From: Enterobacteria phage vB_EcoM_IME540
Direction: 5' to 3' (one strand)
Sequence record: MT150133.1
DNA: 64,000 bases
Within the stretch, counting starts at the first letter, position 1, and every line of letters begins with the position of its first letter. Below the pieces are notes generated by a model. It was given only the letters and a program-made list of their open reading frames with translations. It did not search any database and had not been told where the DNA came from. The position numbers and the translations under genes are program-made. Positions 13,858-60,207 of this stretch are shown here, in pieces.

Positions 13858-14556
13858 TTAGAACGAGTGGCTTGAGCCTGCTTCCATAGCCAATACATAA
13901 GAAGCTTGTGAACCTTCAAACTTGGCTGCGAAACGAGCGTCCTGGCCTTCACCACGGGCCCATAACAATACATGGTAATCGGCAGGCATCATTTTCATAT
14001 TAGTTTTGTTGATAATGAATTTGAATTCAGGGCCATCATGGTCTGCAACCACTAAGGAATACAATGGACGGGCCAGGTCCTTATCATCAACTTGTTTGTA
14101 GCCATTGATTACAATTTTACCATTGTCTACAGTAATAGCAAATGTATCAATACTCAGTCCAGAGGACACACGCATCAACTGTTGGTAATCTTCGGCTTTA
14201 AGGTCAAAAATAACTTCAGCCACCGGGAACGGAATAGCTTTGCTTGGGAATGCAATTGTACTTGGGTCGGCAATAGGCCACTTAATAGTTGAACGTTGGT
14301 CTTTAATAATTAGAGTGGTTTGGTCTTCACTTACCGAAACTTCAGCACTATCAGATACCAATGACAGAATACTTAAGAAGCCGTTCAAATCATAGATTGC
14401 GGCTTCGATATCAAAGGTATCACTTACAGTAGCTTCACCATAACTTGCACCCGTTACTGAACGAGTTAGAATAGTGTTACCAGGCTTAAGCATGATACCT
14501 GGGTTAATACTGGAGAAGTTTTTCAGAATGTTCAGAGTTTCTTTAGAGAATTTCAT
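13858..14556 (-). CDS. 45: sliding clamp gp45
   Basis: 232 aa; syntenic and similar in length to T4 gp45 (228 aa); AAGGAAA SD. Confidence 0.9.
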   Translation of the reverse strand: MKFSKETLNILKNFSSINPGIMLKPGNTILTRSVTGASYGEATVSDTFDIEAAIYDLNGFLSILSLVSDSAEVSVSEDQTTLIIKDQRSTIKWPIADPSTIAFPSKAIPFPVAEVIFDLKAEDYQQLMRVSSGLSIDTFAITVDNGKIVINGYKQVDDKDLARPLYSLVVADHDGPEFKFIINKTNMKMMPADYHVLLWARGEGQDARFAAKFEGSQASYVLAMEAGSSHSF

Positions 14557-19567: not shown

Positions 19568-19834
19568 TTAATCCTTTGGAGTCAATTCAATAGTGAAGTA
19601 GAAATTAGCGTTCTCAACATGATAACGGTAATCTACGTTATTGTCAGGAGAAGTGAATTCAATATTCCTGACGTTAAGTGGGTCAATATCAATAGGAAGA
19701 CCTTTAACATCCCGTAATATCAATTTAATAAAATAAGGGAGTGCTTCAAAGTCTTCCATTCCATCTAAAAGTGGAGTGATATTAATCTGATGTTCCATAT
19801 AAAAAATCCAGTTCACCAACTTTAGGTTCGGCAC
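19568..19834 (-). CDS. hypothetical protein (start uncertain)
   Basis: 88 aa ORF overlapping the 3' end of gene 55; ORF-track start is GTG. Confidence 0.45.
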
Positions 19835-20339
19835 TCTTATCAGACCCTGGCGCTTTAGTTAAAGAGGTTTCATACTGTGTCATTTTATCGTAGATATCTT
19901 GGATAAAGGTTTCATCTGCAATACCTACCATATCGTCATCATTACTGTCATAGACATTATGGACGAAGTAGCTATATTTCTTTGCCATTTCTTTACGTTC
20001 TTTTTTGATACGCTGAACGAAGGCATTAAAACAAGCCATAGTGATATATGCATGCGGGTTGTCGTATTTTGTTTCGTCGAAGTTGTGAAGACCTTTAATC
20101 GAAGCTTCGATTCCATCAGCAATCATTTCTTGCTTCCAAGATTGGGTATATCCTGAGAAGTTGAAACGTTTACTTAGTCCTTCAGCAATGAGCATAATAG
20201 CCAAGCCGATAACGTCGTTCTGGCGAACTATTTTATTAGGATCGGTATTTTCTCTAAGCTCTGTTTTCCATTGGGTAATAGCTTTCAGAAGCTCCTTATT
20301 ATTTACATAGTTATTTTTAGTCAGTTTAATTTCGGTCAT
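19782..20339 (-). CDS. 55: late-transcription sigma factor gp55
   Basis: 185 aa; NYVNNKELL...[46 protein letters not shown] matches T4 gp55. Confidence 0.95.
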
Positions 20340-22390: not shown

Positions 22391-22419
22391 AATGTTCTCC
22401 TCATGTGTTGATAGGATAG

Positions 22420-22448
22420 ACTATAACACATGAGGAGAGGAAGTAAAC
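22420..22448 (-). promoter_or_regulatory. early promoter element (GTTTAC-N17-TATAGT)
   Basis: rc GTTTACTTCCTCTCCTCATGTGTTATAGT. Confidence 0.5.
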
Positions 22449-39056: not shown

Positions 39057-39084
39057 TTTGTAATCTCCTGTAGTTGATAGGTCT

Positions 39085-39113
39085 ATAGTACCACGTCTAC
39101 AGGAGATGTAAAC
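39085..39113 (-). promoter_or_regulatory. early promoter element (GTTTAC-N17-TACTAT)
   Basis: family member: gtctatagtaccacgtctacaggagatgtaaac. Confidence 0.55.
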
Positions 39114-41553: not shown

Positions 41554-41581
41554 TTTTTAATCTCCTGTAGTTGATAGGTCT

Positions 41582-41610
41582 ATAGTATCATGCCTACAGG
41601 AGATGTAAAC
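41582..41610 (-). promoter_or_regulatory. early promoter element (GTTTAC-N17-TACTAT)
   Basis: family member; the adjacent TATAAATA at 41612-41619 is formed by the last codons of the upstream ORF. Confidence 0.55.
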
Positions 41611-42009
41611 TTATTTATAGGTTTTCATCCAATTCTTGAACAAAGCTGCGACGTCTTTCTCTTTAACGTTCAGTTTAACGTCCAACATTTTACCACCGGC
41701 AGCACGTGTCTGACGAATCTTAGCAGTACCGGTTTCGCCATTCCACTCAACATAATACTGTCCGGTGTTCATTGCAATACCGTCGCCGTAGTCTTCATTT
41801 TTAGAAGTGGTGAATGCCAGCTTCATAGTCTTAGATACACGAGCCTGCATGCCTGTCTGAAGGGCATTACGAACGCGAATAACCTGAGGAGTGGCCTGGG
41901 TCAGGTTTTCATTCAGTTCTTCAGTGAACTCTTCAGATTCAAACATCGCCAAAAGTTCTTTAGATGCAGGAATTACATTCTCTGCGATAAATTCATTATA
42001 AGTTTTCAT
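41611..42009 (-). CDS. internal-protein-like capsid-targeted protein (132 aa)
   Basis: N-terminus [11 protein letters not shown] (CTS-like leader). Confidence 0.6.
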
Positions 42010-42490
42010 ATGCTTTCCAAGTACCTGTTTTAAATGTGGAAATCACGCGCTTAGCACGATTAGGAGTTTGTTTATACCAACGGGATTGAGCCAGGTTAAC
42101 TGCTGCATCATCCCAACGTTTTTGCTGAAGCATACGCAGAGAGTTAGTGAACCCTGCTACGCCTGCTTCACCCATTTGGAAGACCATGTTAATTAAAGCA
42201 CAACGACGAACTTCGTCCAGTACATCATAAACAGGTTTCAATTTAGGATTACGCAGAATAGCTCTACGAGCATTTTCAACCGACCGGTTAAAGAGTTGTT
42301 CGGCTTCAGCCATAGTAATACGACCATTGCAAACTCGACCCATAAGCTTATCAAGTTCAGCCCGAGCAACATCTTTAGAAGGATTCTTAGTAATCAATTG
42401 GCCAATACCAATAGTATAGTATCCCTCAGTATCCTTATATAAGTCTAATTTACAGCCTTCATCAAGGCGTAACATATCAAAAATATCCAT
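41996..42490 (-). CDS. e: lysozyme (endolysin) E
   Basis: 164 aa; [12 protein letters not shown]...[13 protein letters not shown]...[14 protein letters not shown] matches T4 lysozyme. Confidence 0.95.
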
Positions 42491-42520
42491 AATACCTCCT
42501 GAGTATAGGAGGTATTTATA
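42491..42520 (-). promoter_or_regulatory. gene e leader: late promoter TATAAATA overlapping an SD-sequestering hairpin
   Basis: minus strand TATAAATA-CCTCCTATACTCAGGAGGTATT-ATG; inverted repeat ACCTCCT/AGGAGGT pairs the SD. Confidence 0.55.
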
Positions 42521-56748: not shown

Positions 56749-57185
56749 CCTAATTTTTTCAGTGAGTTTTCGGTAATCAATCTGAAATTAATTCCCATTT
56801 TATCTGCTGTAGCTTTAGCAGCTTTCCATTTATCTTTATTTACACTCCATGTATAATGTTCGTTGATATATCTCTTTTTAGCAGCTGTAGTCATTTTAGC
56901 AGGCGCCGCTGGAGGATGGGTCTCTTTAAAAGGTTTGACTTCGAAAAAGAATTGTTGACCATTGTCGAACTTCACCCAGAAGTCCATAAAATACCGACGT
57001 TTCTTTCCATCAGCGTTACTAAAATATGGAATCACAACCTCTTCCGAGTTCCACTGGACGACATTAGGATGGTTATCAAGCCAACGCATAAGCCATGCTT
57101 CCCAAGAGGAACGATATTGGATTTTCTTCCAATCACCTTTATATTTTTGTAAGTTTGTAGGTTTAAATTTCCCTGAGTAGGCCAT
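56736..57185 (-). CDS. 4: head completion protein gp4
   Basis: 149 aa, syntenic; size matches T4 gp4; GGAGGCACTATG initiation region. Confidence 0.8.
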
Positions 57186-57230
57186 AGTGCCTCCTTATAA
57201 ATATTAATATTATTTATACTCGGAGGCACT
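57186..57230. promoter_or_regulatory. divergent late promoter region between genes 4 and 53
   Basis: TATAAATA on both strands (57196-57203 plus; about 57209-57216 minus) flanked by inverted repeat TAGTGCCTCC / GGAGGCACTA carrying both SDs. Confidence 0.55.
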
Positions 57231-57833
57231 ATGCTCTTCTCATTTTTCGATCCCATCGATTACGAATCAAAAACAGTCAAGCCAGATTCCGGCTCATTAA
57301 CTGATGCCGATGTACTGAGCGTACCGATGACTGATATATTTAGAAACTATAAAGAATATTTTGATAAAGTGGCTAAAAATTATACACTTAAAACATATTA
57401 TATCAGTGGGGCCCCTCGTCCAGAAGAATTAGCCCATCAACTTTATGGTAACGTGCAATTATATTGGGTCCTTTTAATGTGTAACAATATCTATGACCCT
57501 TATTACGGCTGGATTACAGGCCAAGAATCTGCGTATCAAGCAGCTATTCAACGTTATGCTACTGCAGGCGGAAACCAAGTCCTTTATCATGTCAATGAAA
57601 AGGGTGAGAAATTCTGGAATCTAGTAAATACTCCGGAAAATCCTTATACTTGGTACGATAAAGGTGATACAGAAAAACGTTATCCTCAATATGAAGGTCC
57701 TTTGGCTGCAGTAGATATTTACGAGGACGCCATTCGTAAAAATGAATATAAGCGCGAAATAAAGATTATAGACCCTAATGACATCGAGTCCTTTGTTTCC
57801 GCTTTAATTAGAGAAATGGAGAAGTCACTCTAA
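57231..57833 (+). CDS. 53: baseplate wedge protein gp53
   Basis: 200 aa, syntenic immediately before gene 5; late promoter upstream. Confidence 0.8.
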   Translation: MLFSFFDPIDYESKTVKPDSGSLTDADVLSVPMTDIFRNYKEYFDKVAKNYTLKTYYISGAPRPEELAHQLYGNVQLYWVLLMCNNIYDPYYGWITGQESAYQAAIQRYATAGGNQVLYHVNEKGEKFWNLVNTPENPYTWYDKGDTEKRYPQYEGPLAAVDIYEDAIRKNEYKREIKIIDPNDIESFVSALIREMEKSL

Positions 57834-58468
57834 TGTTTTATTACGTCTATAAAATAACCAATATAATTAATGGTAAATTTTATATCGGTGCTCATAGTAC
57901 ATCAAATATGGATGACGGTTATATGGGCTCAGGTAAATTAATTAAACGCGCTATACTAAAATATGGCATTGAAAATTTCAAAAAAGAAATATTAAAATTT
58001 GTTGATTCTAAAAAAGAAATGTATGAACTCGAAAAAGAACTTGTTGTCCTTACTGAAAATTCATACAATTTAAAACCGGGCGGTTCCGGTGGGTTTTTAA
58101 AACATGATAACTTTAAAGGCAGGTCCCATAGTCAGAAAACCAAAGATATTATGAGCGCTAATAACTCAGGCAAAAACAATCCTATGTATGGTAGAAAACG
58201 AGACCAACACGGAGAAAAAGCACCTAATTATGGTAAAAAGTGCTCTGAGGCTAAAAGAAAATTACTTTCTGAAAAATCTAAATCCTATTTTGAAAACCTT
58301 CAAACCATAACTAAAAATCTCGGCTTTGGTCCTACATCGGTTGAAACTAGATATGTATCAAGACATATTAAAAAGCTAGGATTAGATTTTTATAAATTTA
58401 ATCGTGATATAACAGAAACTAATGTTTCCATAGTTAGAAATATTTTAGAACAAAGGAAAGCGCTATGA
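57833..58468 (+). mobile_element. GIY-YIG homing endonuclease (Seg-like) between genes 53 and 5
   Basis: YKITNIINGKFYIGAHST...DGYMGSG; shares a nucleotide with the gp53 stop (TAATG at 57833). Confidence 0.8.
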
Positions 58469-60207
58469 TTAACATGTCTGATAATGTAAGTTGGTTCGTC
58501 GGTGTGGTTGAAGACCGTATGGACCCACTCCAACAAGGACGCGTTCGAGTTCGTGTCTGGGGCCTGCATCCTTACGAAAAGGTCCAAGGTCCTGTAAAAG
58601 GCCTTCGTACAGAGGATTTACCGTGGATGTCCGTATTAATGCCTACATCTTCTGCCTCTGTTTCTGGTATCCAAACCGCTATGACTGGTATGGTTCCAGG
58701 TACTCAGGTTTATGGGCACTTTCTTGATAAGTGGAAATTAAACGGGCTTGTCCTCGGTACATATGGTTCCGCTTCAAGACAAAAGGCTAATCCTAATGAA
58801 GGTTTTAGTGACCCGACAGGTCAATACCCACTTTATTTGGGTAATGATGCTGCAGCACTAAACCGAGGTGGTGAAGTTGGATACGATGCCACTTCTAACG
58901 TAATACAAGATGCAAACACCGATGTAGGTATTAACCCAGACGGTTTGGATTTGAGCCAAGTCAAGCCTGATGATAATCCTAATTTCACAATAGAAAACAT
59001 GCTTCATCGTGATGAAGGGCTTAGACTGAAGGTATATTGGGATACCGAAGGTTATCCTACTATAGGTATAGGCCACCTTATCACACCACAACCTATTAGA
59101 GATATGAATCGAATAAACAAAATATTATCTAATCAGGTAGGACGAGAAGTTAAAGGTAACCCTGGTGCAATATCAATGGATGAGGCTTCTAAATTATTCC
59201 AAGAAGACCTTAAAAAAGTCCAAAACGATATAGGTCGGCATAGTGTTGTAGGTCCTGTTTACAATAAAGAAAACCGTTCAAGACAAATGGCTCTTGAAAA
59301 CATGGCTTTCCAAATGGGATTAGGTGGATTGGCTAAATTCCGTGGAATGCTTAGTGCAATGCTAATAGGCGATTATAAAAAGGCATTTGAGGAAGCTCGT
59401 AATTCAGTATGGTTTAACCAAACTAAAGGTCGCGCATCAAGGGTGTCAATGATTATCCTCACAGGTAACATGGAATCATATGGTATTATGGCCCCTAAAG
59501 AAAGGTCATTTAATGGCCGTTCGTATAGAATGATTCAAACCTTTGTGGCCCCTACAAATTCAGACCCTGCCGACCCGTGGACTCCAGAAGACACAAGGAT
59601 TCTTTTTAAAGAACCTGATTCTAGTTATAAAGGCGAATATCCATATGTCCAAACCATGCAAACTGAAGGCGGGCATATCCAAGAATTCGATAATACCCCA
59701 GGGCAAGAACGATACCGTTTAATCCATCCTACCGGTAGTTATGAAGAAGTTGCTCCTGACGGACGTAAAACTTCTAAGACGGTAGCCGATGGTTATTATA
59801 TGACCCAAGGCGATTCAAATACTTATGTTGGTGGTAATAATAAGGTCAATATAGGCGGCGATGAAACCTATTATAATATGGCAAACGTTCGTCGTCAAAC
59901 TGACGGGTCTGAAAGCATCCATATTCGTGGTAATGAAACTAAAACAGTAGAAGGTGACGGAACCCTTATTGTTAAAGGAAACGTAACAATTCTTGTCGAG
60001 GGTAGTGCTGATATAACTGTTAAGGGCGATGCTAAAACATTAGTTGAAGGCAATCATGACTATACCGTAAATGGAAACGTTAAATGGTCTGTAAATGGAA
60101 ACGTTGATATGACTGTTGCAGGTAATTGGTCTGAAACTATGTCAACTATGAGTTCTATTGCATCAGGTCAATATACTATTGATGGTTCGAGGATTGACAT
60201 TGGCTAA
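58465..60207 (+). CDS. 5: baseplate hub / tail lysozyme gp5
   Basis: 580 aa; N-terminal NVSWFVGVVEDRMDPLQQGRVRVRVWGLH OB-fold region, central lysozyme domain, C-terminal beta-helix repeats. Confidence 0.95.
   Translation: MINMSDNVSWFVGVVEDRMDPLQQGRVRVRVWGLHPYEKVQGPVKGLRTEDLPWMSVLMPTSSASVSGIQTAMTGMVPGTQVYGHFLDKWKLNGLVLGTYGSASRQKANPNEGFSDPTGQYPLYLGNDAAALNRGGEVGYDATSNVIQDANTDVGINPDGLDLSQVKPDDNPNFTIENMLHRDEGLRLKVYWDTEGYPTIGIGHLITPQPIRDMNRINKILSNQVGREVKGNPGAISMDEASKLFQEDLKKVQNDIGRHSVVGPVYNKENRSRQMALENMAFQMGLGGLAKFRGMLSAMLIGDYKKAFEEARNSVWFNQTKGRASRVSMIILTGNMESYGIMAPKERSFNGRSYRMIQTFVAPTNSDPADPWTPEDTRILFKEPDSSYKGEYPYVQTMQTEGGHIQEFDNTPGQERYRLIHPTGSYEEVAPDGRKTSKTVADGYYMTQGDSNTYVGGNNKVNIGGDETYYNMANVRRQTDGSESIHIRGNETKTVEGDGTLIVKGNVTILVEGSADITVKGDAKTLVEGNHDYTVNGNVKWSVNGNVDMTVAGNWSETMSTMSSIASGQYTIDGSRIDIG

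Follow-up and report, generated by a model that had tools for sequence, protein, structure and literature searches.

Organization of the Gene 4/Gene 53 Junction

The segment studied shares 99.5% identity with Escherichia phage vB_EcoM_FB and 98.6% with QL01, which are members of the genus Dhakavirus of the Straboviridae, and the window (the whole 64,000-nucleotide stretch of DNA that was analyzed) is itself Dhakavirus, i.e., T4-like, DNA. Two divergently transcribed genes meet at the junction described here. Gene 4 (56736..57185, minus strand) codes for a 149-amino acid head completion protein, with a start codon that appears as CAT on the plus strand (57183-57185). Gene 53 (57231..57833, plus strand) codes for a 200-amino acid baseplate wedge subunit, and starts with the ATG at 57231-57233. 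The gene 4 product is 62% identical to T4 gp4, matches Pfam family PF08722, which has a TnsA-like nuclease fold, and is annotated as "head completion protein" in relatives that include vB_EcoM_FB. The gene 53 product is likewise 62% identical to its T4 counterpart, gp53, and matches Pfam family PF11246 (Phage_gp53) with an E-value of 8e-73. The original prediction placed the two gene starts 45 bp apart on opposite strands, and the spacer between them (57186-57230, AGTGCCTCCTTATAAATATTAATATTATTTATACTCGGAGGCACT) is exactly 45 bp long.

Read along the plus strand, the spacer is composed of AGTGCCTCC-T-TATAAATA-TTAATAT-TATTTATA-CTC-GGAGGCACT. Its outer parts, together with the two start codons, form an inverted repeat whose arms match at 12 of 12 positions and are separated by 27 nt. 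The left arm (57183-57194) reads CATAGTGCCTCC on the plus strand and GGAGGCACTATG on the minus strand, where it holds the Shine-Dalgarno sequence GGAGG (57194..57190), a CACT spacer, and the gene 4 ATG. The right arm (57222-57233) reads GGAGGCACTATG on the plus strand, and holds GGAGG (57222-57226), CACT, and the gene 53 ATG. The identical initiation context that had been claimed for the two genes is thus present in full; the 10-mer by which it had been described (TAGTGCCTCC/GGAGGCACTA) is the core of the perfect 12-bp repeat. An imperfect extension lengthens the repeat to 21 nt at 86% identity (57174-57194/57222-57242), and reaches into both coding regions.

Between the arms, a 24-bp core composed of A and T only (57195..57218) contains two copies of TATAAATA, one on each strand, as had been predicted. 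The first copy (57196-57203, plus strand) faces gene 53, and the second (57218..57211, minus strand) faces gene 4; the two are separated by the 7-bp sequence TTAATAT. The whole near-palindrome comprises the 21-nt outer arm and an inner stem made of the two boxes, and occupies 57174..57242. The description of the region as symmetric holds for the arms of the repeat and fails for the boxes, which are shifted by 2 bp relative to the repeat axis: the start codon of gene 53 lies 27 nt from its box, and that of gene 4 lies 25 nt from its own.

Several of these features were compared with chance expectation. The motif TATAAATA occurs six times in the window, where 7.9 occurrences are expected, and since it is not enriched, the motif alone is weak evidence for a promoter. 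Perfect inverted repeats of at least 12 bp with arms within 60 bp are found at two loci, compared to 0.4 expected, and 28% of Markov resamples of the window contain at least one such repeat; taken alone, the inverted repeat is only mildly unusual. The arrangement GGAGG-N4-ATG is present at four sites in the 64 kb (1.2 expected), and two of the four are the junction pair, which has identical N4 sequences. The combination of these elements on two divergent start codons, with boxes 25–27 nt upstream, is not due to chance, because the same placement recurs in T4 and in dozens of its relatives.

Late Promoter Elements and Predicted Transcription Start Sites

T4 late promoters consist of an 8-bp TATA box located about one helical turn upstream of the start site, without a −35 element (PMC2988020). 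The box occupies positions −13 to −6, and a CTAAATA variant is known (Nolan et al. 2006, PMC1524935). Variants with A at −13 are known as well, late transcripts of either polarity are made, and an AT-rich stretch downstream of the box is typical (PMC2988020). Both copies of TATAAATA at the junction agree exactly with this definition of a T4-type late box (8 bp at −13 to −6, A tolerated at −13), and the 7 bp that follow each box are all A or T (TTAATAT and ATATTAA, respectively). The −35 positions of both promoters fall within the coding sequence of the opposite gene. With this spacing, the predicted start site of the gene 53 transcript is the A at 57209, which would give a 22-nt leader, and that of the gene 4 transcript is the A at 57205, which would give a 20-nt leader. 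The other boxes in the window, including that of the lysozyme gene e, have box-to-start distances of 22–29 nt, and the junction box at 57196-57203 is the only TATAAATA on the plus strand of the window.

T4 late promoters are read by gp55-containing RNA polymerase, with gp33 and the DNA-tracking clamp gp45 as activators, and the clamp needs to be loaded in the correct polarity (PMC2988020, PMC1524935, PMC7892883). Two of these factors are encoded within the window. Gene 55 (19782..20339, minus strand), whose product is the late sigma-like factor expected to read TATAAATA, is 100% identical in tblastn to QL01 gp55, annotated as "RNA polymerase sigma factor, 55 gene product". Gene 45 (13858..14556, minus strand) encodes the sliding clamp and is 98.7% identical in tblastn to QL01 gp45; the role of gp45 is the activation of late transcription (PMC2988020, PMC7892883). 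Gene 33, for the co-activator gp33, lies outside the window. Both junction promoters would be expected to be active late in infection.

The GenBank records of T4 carry no promoter features at the 4/53 junction, and no 5′-end data for this junction were found for any phage in the literature consulted. The published list of T4 late promoters reportedly includes those of genes 4 and 53.

Conservation of the Junction in T4 and Other Relatives

The original prediction proposed a comparison with the same junction in related phages, and this comparison, made with T4 and about 40 junctions from its relatives, recovered the same parts. The 47-bp T4 junction can be written as CAT-TGGATTCTCC-T-TATAAATA-GATAATA-TATTTATA-AACA-GGAGGGCCC-ATG. 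All 20 loci recovered via gp4 that also have gene 53 have a conserved layout within 45–56 bp: a Shine-Dalgarno sequence, a plus-strand box, a gap of 6–11 bp, a minus-strand box, and a second Shine-Dalgarno sequence. The plus-strand box in these loci is TATAAATA or AATAAATA, the latter being a known A(−13) variant of the late box (PMC2988020).

In the 21 junctions of this first comparison and in further genera, about 40 relatives in all, two opposed late boxes (TATAAATA, AATAAATA, or CTAAATA) and two Shine-Dalgarno sequences were found in spacers of 33–67 bp, with box-to-start distances mostly of 25–35 nt. The arrangement is present in Gaprivervirus, Kanagawavirus, Mosigvirus, Krischvirus, Slopekvirus, Muldoonvirus, and Schizotequatrovirus, and also in cyanophages syn9 and P-SSM2 and rhizobiophage phiN3. 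Boxes of the TATAAATA type are retained in Krischvirus JSE, Mosigvirus PNJ-6, Kanagawavirus 305, and SonariX; in Slopekvirus KP27 and Pseudotevenvirus GAP161, a consensus CTAAATA box is found on the gene 53 side only. The gene that faces gene 4 varies at the greatest distances: it is gene 48, followed by gene 53, in vibriophage phi-ST2, syn9, and phiN3, and an unnamed ORF in P-SSM2. All four of these phages have opposed CTAAATA-type boxes within 33–67 bp. The relative order of the boxes varies too. They are "crossed", with the rightward box closer to gene 4, in Tevenvirinae, Krischvirus, cyanophages, and phiN3; they are back-to-back and overlapping in Serratia SP1 (TATTTATAAATA), and back-to-back and separate in phi-ST2. 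Aeromonas phages (Biquartavirus, Tulanevirus) could not be used for the comparison, because they lack the divergent junction; their genes 5-5.1-4-2-3 are colinear.

A metagenome scan with the 37-nt dhakavirus core yielded two contigs, and IMG/VR scans yielded few new lineages. A motif scan of IMG/VR revealed the same design (CTCC-NN-ATAAATA ... TATTTAT-NN-GGAG) on several unrelated metagenomic contigs. The junction is therefore an old, conserved feature of T4-like genomes, of which the window holds one more copy.

Variation of the Spacer among Dhakaviruses

In 13 dhakaviruses, the 45-bp spacer is invariant apart from one position in each arm, and the flanking coding sequences of the same phages vary at third codon positions. 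Of the four bases between the Shine-Dalgarno sequence and ATG, three are conserved on both sides. The spacer as a whole is under strong constraint. Such near-total conservation is not obviously demanded by promoter and Shine-Dalgarno function alone. Co-conversion with the nearby GIY-YIG homing endonuclease gene was considered as its cause and rejected, as a distance of 600 bp separates that gene from the spacer, and the intervening gene 53 varies normally.

The variable positions were followed in 16 dhakavirus junctions, taken from genomes and two metagenome contigs. The segment between the Shine-Dalgarno sequence and the start codon is CACT, CAACT, or CGACT on the gene 4 side, and CACT, CCCT, or CTCT on the gene 53 side. 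Eight of the nine possible combinations were observed, and there was no covariation between the gene 4 and gene 53 alleles in the 16 junctions. A perfect 12/12 mirror characterizes the window, FB, QL01, and MX01; 11 of 12 positions match in KIT01 and in one of the metagenome contigs, and the remaining dhakaviruses have a one-base bulge. Since the spacer alleles reassort freely, the exact mirror is not needed, and initiation regions that agree at 12 of 12 positions are a polymorphic state of a sub-lineage rather than a requirement. The view that the mirrored, identical initiation context is a designed feature was not upheld: to the free reassortment of alleles without covariation can be added the T4 junction, where only 6 of 12 positions mirror each other, and the 2-bp displacement of the boxes from the repeat axis.

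Predicted Structure of Read-Through RNA

The two boxes are complementary to each other, as are the two initiation regions, and a single long hairpin is therefore predicted for any transcript of either strand that crosses the junction. For a 101-nt RNA crossing the junction, folding energies of −35.6 and −36.3 kcal/mol were calculated for the two strands, with z-scores of −7.2 and −6.9, and none of 200 shuffled sequences was as stable. The predicted stem consists of a 12-bp outer and an 8-bp inner part, the latter formed by TATAAATA and TATTTATA, and pairs the downstream Shine-Dalgarno sequence and AUG. The probability that the segment from the Shine-Dalgarno sequence to AUG is unpaired is <0.01 in read-through RNA; for the predicted late mRNAs, the value rises to 0.58 with gene 4 and to 0.33 with gene 53. 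The putative start sites at 57205 and 57209 lie between the arms, and late RNA would, by geometry, lack the 5′ arm.

An Rfam scan of 56900-57500 detected no family; there were only sub-threshold chance matches to hairpin-shaped families. A terminator-like hairpin on the minus strand (57296..57278), within coding sequence, was rejected as a candidate, its stem varying at third codon positions among dhakaviruses.

Similarity of the Two Initiation Regions across Lineages

The initiation regions of genes on the two sides of the junction were compared within and between phages by permutation, using 18 lineage representatives. Pairs from the same phage had on average 5.2 identities of 12, and pairs from different phages 4.0 (permutation P 0.003). 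The permutation P values, 0.003–0.007 overall, are optimistic owing to the non-independence of the lineages. Of the 18 within-phage pairs, 3 had 8 or more identities out of 9, as did 3 of the 306 cross-phage pairs. Phage-specific Shine-Dalgarno preferences are incompletely controlled in this comparison. The mirrored sequences themselves differ by genus: GGAGGCACTATG (with GGAGGCACT in the spacer) in Dhakavirus, GGAGGCT[A/T]TATG in Gaprivervirus, AGGGTG[C/A]TAAAATG in Krischvirus JSE, and AATAGGAGGCA in Serratia SP1.

Alternative Explanations of the Inverted Repeat

Perfect arms around a central segment could suggest that a dimeric DNA-binding regulator uses the repeat as its operator, or that an intrinsic terminator acting in both directions separates the two transcription units, the more so as the plus-strand stem, which ends at 57242, is followed by TTTTT at 57243-57247. 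Either function is highly improbable. The arms are centered 39 bp apart and are made of Shine-Dalgarno sequences and start codons, and their sequences differ completely between genera, with the architecture remaining the same; the operator was rejected on these grounds. The only T-run corresponds to conserved phenylalanine codons of gene 53 (MLFSFF), which led us to reject the terminator; moreover, the minus-strand stem is not followed by a T-run, and no plus-strand transcription towards the junction is known. A different role would be that of a translational gate, selected to work in both directions, in which putative read-through RNA would hide the downstream Shine-Dalgarno sequence and AUG, and only late RNA, initiated within the loop, would be translated. 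Such a mechanism has been described for T4 genes e, soc, I-TevI, segB, and mobE (PMC2988022). The stability of the predicted hairpin, with its buried Shine-Dalgarno-to-AUG segment that is freer in late mRNAs, agrees with a gate, as does its persistence: every dhakavirus allele retains a hairpin of −26 to −33 kcal/mol (z −5.7 to −8.4), the variable spacer positions are limited to the mirrored, mostly unpaired one in each arm, significant hairpins (z −3 to −4) are predicted in Gaprivervirus, Kanagawavirus, and Krischvirus JSE, and one compensated pair (U-A to A-U) distinguishes Gaprivervirus from Dhakavirus. The window also uses the device elsewhere. Gene e has the classic gate, TATAAATA-CCTCC-N8-GGAGG-TATT-ATG (42520..42488), and hairpins that sequester Shine-Dalgarno sequences and have promoter-like −10 boxes in their loops are found at 22438..22396, 39107..39063, and 41604..41560. 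A candidate source of read-through towards gene 4 exists as well: a σ70-like promoter on the minus strand within gene 5 (TTGACG-17-TATAAT, 59898..59870) matches the T4 oriE-region promoter, and is followed by repEA- and repEB-like ORFs. The oriE of T4 is likewise close to a site where transcription diverges (PMC3016281). We nevertheless consider a selected gate rather unlikely. Any divergent gene pair whose short spacer holds two Shine-Dalgarno sequences and two opposed boxes will show such complementarity automatically, and covariation cannot separate the models, because the same sequence on both mRNAs means complementary arms in the DNA. Shuffled sequences fold as well as the natural ones in T4 and in about half of the genera, Mosigvirus and Slopekvirus among them (z −1.4 to +1.7), and the perfect mirror is dispensable among dhakaviruses. 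Upstream of gene 53, there is no evident plus-strand promoter, the junction's own TATAAATA being the sole one on that strand, and gating of gene 53 would therefore be purposeless.

There remains the question of how the symmetry beyond boxes and Shine-Dalgarno sequences arose. It could reflect a neutral mutation bias, whereby intrastrand template switching copies one arm onto the other. Near-perfect mirrors of unrelated sequence in separate genera fit this idea, and so does the higher within-phage than cross-phage likeness of initiation regions (P 0.003–0.007, values made optimistic by the non-independence of lineages); the perfect state, too, lacks just one bulged base that its sister alleles have next to gene 4 (CACT versus CGACT or CAACT). 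The quasipalindrome model of Ripley ("quasipalindrome correction") was reportedly first described in T4. In T4 infections, mutations templated by strand switching between imperfect repeats have been documented (PMC3016281). The change may, however, have been either a deletion or an insertion, with the outgroup Gaprivervirus already having 4-nt spacers on both sides, and the variable position on the gene 53 side (A, C, or T) has not been homogenized towards the other arm in most dhakaviruses; we regard the mutational explanation as tenable and doubtful at once. Much the same can be said of plain coincidence, according to which identical 4-nt spacers happen to lie next to two strong, equally spaced Shine-Dalgarno sequences and mean nothing further. 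With GGAGG and ATG fixed, just four free positions have to match, the match is lost in T4 and most dhakaviruses, and, as noted above, a perfect 12-bp inverted repeat arises in 28% of resampled 64-kb sequences. Coincidence accounts less readily for the rarity of GGAGG-N4-ATG, with half of its four sites in the window at this junction, for the conservation of three of four spacer positions on both sides, or for the recurrence of mirrors in other genera and the outcome of the permutation test, and we hold it, too, to be possible without being the probable answer. The residual symmetry may thus stem from selection for a hairpin, from quasipalindrome-templated mutation, or from coincidence.

Discussion

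The spacer between genes 4 and 53 is very probably the Dhakavirus ortholog of the T4 4/53 junction, and would contain two overlapping, divergent, gp55-dependent late promoters with short leaders and strong Shine-Dalgarno sequences. The plus-strand TATAAATA would direct synthesis of gene 53 mRNA from ~57209, extending into the GIY-YIG gene, gene 5, and downstream baseplate genes. The minus-strand TATAAATA would direct synthesis of gene 4 mRNA from ~57205, extending into genes 2 and 3. Because of the crossed arrangement, each box would fall within the initially transcribed region of the opposite promoter (about +3 to +10), and only ~4 bp would separate the predicted start sites. Since the boxes are crossed and only 7 bp apart, the two open complexes would overlap; the predicted transcription bubbles share the region around 57203-57211, and a single polymerase could be accommodated per DNA molecule at a time. 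We therefore expect the promoters to exclude one another on one DNA molecule, instead of forming one symmetric unit. The T4 gp45 clamp acts with polarity, in a one-dimensional scanning mode (PMC7892883), and the direction of transcription at the junction would depend on the side from which the gp45-tethered polymerase arrives. The palindrome, in turn, would be largely a by-product of packing two opposed boxes and two opposed Shine-Dalgarno sequences into a minimal spacer. The within-phage likeness of initiation regions (permutation P 0.003–0.007) is not fully explained when the palindrome is viewed purely as a by-product.

The original prediction described a compact, palindromic, bidirectional late control region. 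Its bidirectional late character is borne out by the two opposed boxes, by orthology, and by the presence of gp55 and gp45; the mirrored context as an element of design is not. Comparison of genomes indicates that the junction is a copy of a known, ancient pair of divergent late promoters, and that the perfect mirror is a variable detail of a sub-lineage and not a new control device.

The junction is of interest as the point where the Dhakavirus genome switches coding strands, and where two late units start: 4-2-3 in the leftward direction, and 53-(homing endonuclease)-5 with the baseplate genes in the rightward direction. Cyanophages and a rhizobiophage share, with CTAAATA-type boxes, the divergent late promoters ahead of gene 4, which are thus of great age. 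With two promoters expected to be mutually exclusive, the junction offers a good natural test case of how a clamp-tethered polymerase chooses its direction. The mirroring seen in several genera could report either quasipalindrome-templated mutation or selection for occlusion of ribosome-binding sites. A more speculative proposal, which we think improbable, combines both: the palindrome would be kept as a symmetric, two-way translational insulator at the coding-strand switch, where it would silence read-through RNA (for example, early antisense RNA from an oriE/repEA-type promoter in gene 5), with each ribosome-binding site serving as the anti-site of the other and translation restricted to RNA started at the late promoters in the loop, and quasipalindrome-templated mutation would regenerate the symmetry in separate genera.

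The closest known system is the 4/53 region of T4 itself (NC_000866, 77338-77384). It shares with the window the orthologous flanking genes, the order of parts, the 7-bp gap between boxes, TATAAATA on both strands, a spacer of 45–47 bp, and box-to-start distances of 25–28 nt. The two differ in the degree of symmetry, with a 6/12 mirror and a hairpin of −14.6 kcal/mol (z −1.4) in T4, compared to a 12/12 mirror and a read-through hairpin of about −33 kcal/mol in the window, and in the order of genes, as genes 53 and 5 of the window flank a gene for a GIY-YIG homing endonuclease.

The junction also resembles, by prediction, the translational gates of T4 e, soc, I-TevI, and segB and of Aeh1 mobE, where a hairpin covers the ribosome-binding site and the late promoter is placed such that late RNA has no 5′ arm; at the junction, the predicted hairpin likewise covers the Shine-Dalgarno sequence and AUG, with the putative late start site between its arms. 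Those genes, however, are located inside early or middle transcription units, and read-through into them is documented. At the window junction, in contrast, the upstream arm is the ribosome-binding site of another gene, and the strength of the structure varies across genera.

Finally, the junction can be compared with the bacterial bidirectional promoters described by Warman, Grainger, and colleagues, in which opposed −10-type elements similarly share a short, AT-rich, pseudo-symmetric segment, and polymerase bound in one orientation excludes binding in the other (PMC12825309). The bacterial promoters are σ70-dependent, and their divergent start sites are most often 18 bp apart, with distances of 10 and 23 bp also being common. 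In the window, the corresponding elements are 8-bp gp55 boxes without −35 elements, the predicted start sites are separated by ~4 bp, and activation would be by a DNA-tracking clamp.

Comparative Analysis of the Gene 4 Junction

Four distant phages were found to keep the divergent arrangement at the 5' side of gene 4, in which late boxes of the CTAAATA type face opposite ways within 33-67 bp: cyanophages syn9 (gene 4 locus L042) and P-SSM2 (L055), rhizobiophage phiN3 (L043), and vibriophage phi-ST2 (L034). In each case, the junction lies around locus position 1430-1500. The partner of gene 4 is gene 48, rather than gene 53, in syn9, phiN3, and phi-ST2, and an unnamed ORF, also not gene 53, in P-SSM2. 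In syn9, the late box shares bases with the gene 4 start codon (CATAAATAG). A different arrangement was observed in the genera Biquartavirus and Tulanevirus, where the colinear loci of Aeromonas phage avDM10-HWA (L035) and Stenotrophomonas phage IME13 (L036) have the single-strand gene order 5-5.1-(homing endonuclease)-4-2-3. Rearrangement has removed the 4/53 divergence in both genera, and the bidirectional promoter with it.

Among 13 dhakavirus sequences, the first ~85 nt of gene 4 (about 57100-57185) contain 4 variable columns, and the following ~94 nt contain about 20, mainly at third codon positions. No similar conserved stretch was seen in gene 53 of these sequences past its first 17 nt. 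The low variation at the start of gene 4 may reflect extra constraint or a recent sweep.

Genes 53 and 5 are separated by a homing-endonuclease-like ORF of 211 aa (57833-58468, plus strand) with GIY-YIG and NUMOD3 domains. Its ATG shares bases with the gene 53 stop codon (TAATG), and its own stop codon shares bases with the gene 5 start (ATGA); because of these overlaps at both ends, the ORF looks like a promoter-less cassette carried by the gene 53 late transcript. The ORF is missing from T4, MX01, and ESCO10; at the same position, KIT01 has an ORF of the same length, and vB_EcoM_FB a shorter one.

An Antisense Unit in Gene 5 and Shine-Dalgarno Hairpins

Within gene 5, a σ70-like promoter, TTGACG-17-TATAAT (59898..59870, minus strand), aligns with TTGATG-17-TATAAT of the T4 oriE region. 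Located 3' of it and antisense to gene 5 are weakly matching repEA-like (59749..59606, minus; 50% identity, E 2e-9) and repEB-like (58597..58490, minus; 47% identity, E 3e-6) reading frames. Thus, this Dhakavirus appears to have retained an early antisense unit of the oriE type.

Several leaders in the window, all on the minus strand, contain Shine-Dalgarno hairpins. The hairpin ATCTCCTGTAG...CTACAGGAGAT is a leader module present twice (39107..39063 and 41604..41560); both copies bury the Shine-Dalgarno sequence AGGAGA close before an ATG, are preceded by GTTTAC, and contain TACTATAG in the loop, while the 41604..41560 copy has an additional TATAAATA box upstream (41619..41612, minus). A perfect 14-bp inverted repeat, TCTCCTCATGTGTT / AACACATGAGGAGA (22438..22396), is predicted to hide a Shine-Dalgarno site 5 nt ahead of an ATG (-27 kcal/mol). 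Its loop contains a -10-like hexamer, TATAGT, and the hairpin may represent the gating trick of gene e with a middle or early promoter in place of a late one. In the lysozyme gene e leader (42520..42488), TATAAATA is immediately followed by CCTCC-N8-GGAGG-TATT-ATG, which places the predicted late start immediately past the anti-Shine-Dalgarno arm, as in the textbook T4 gate.
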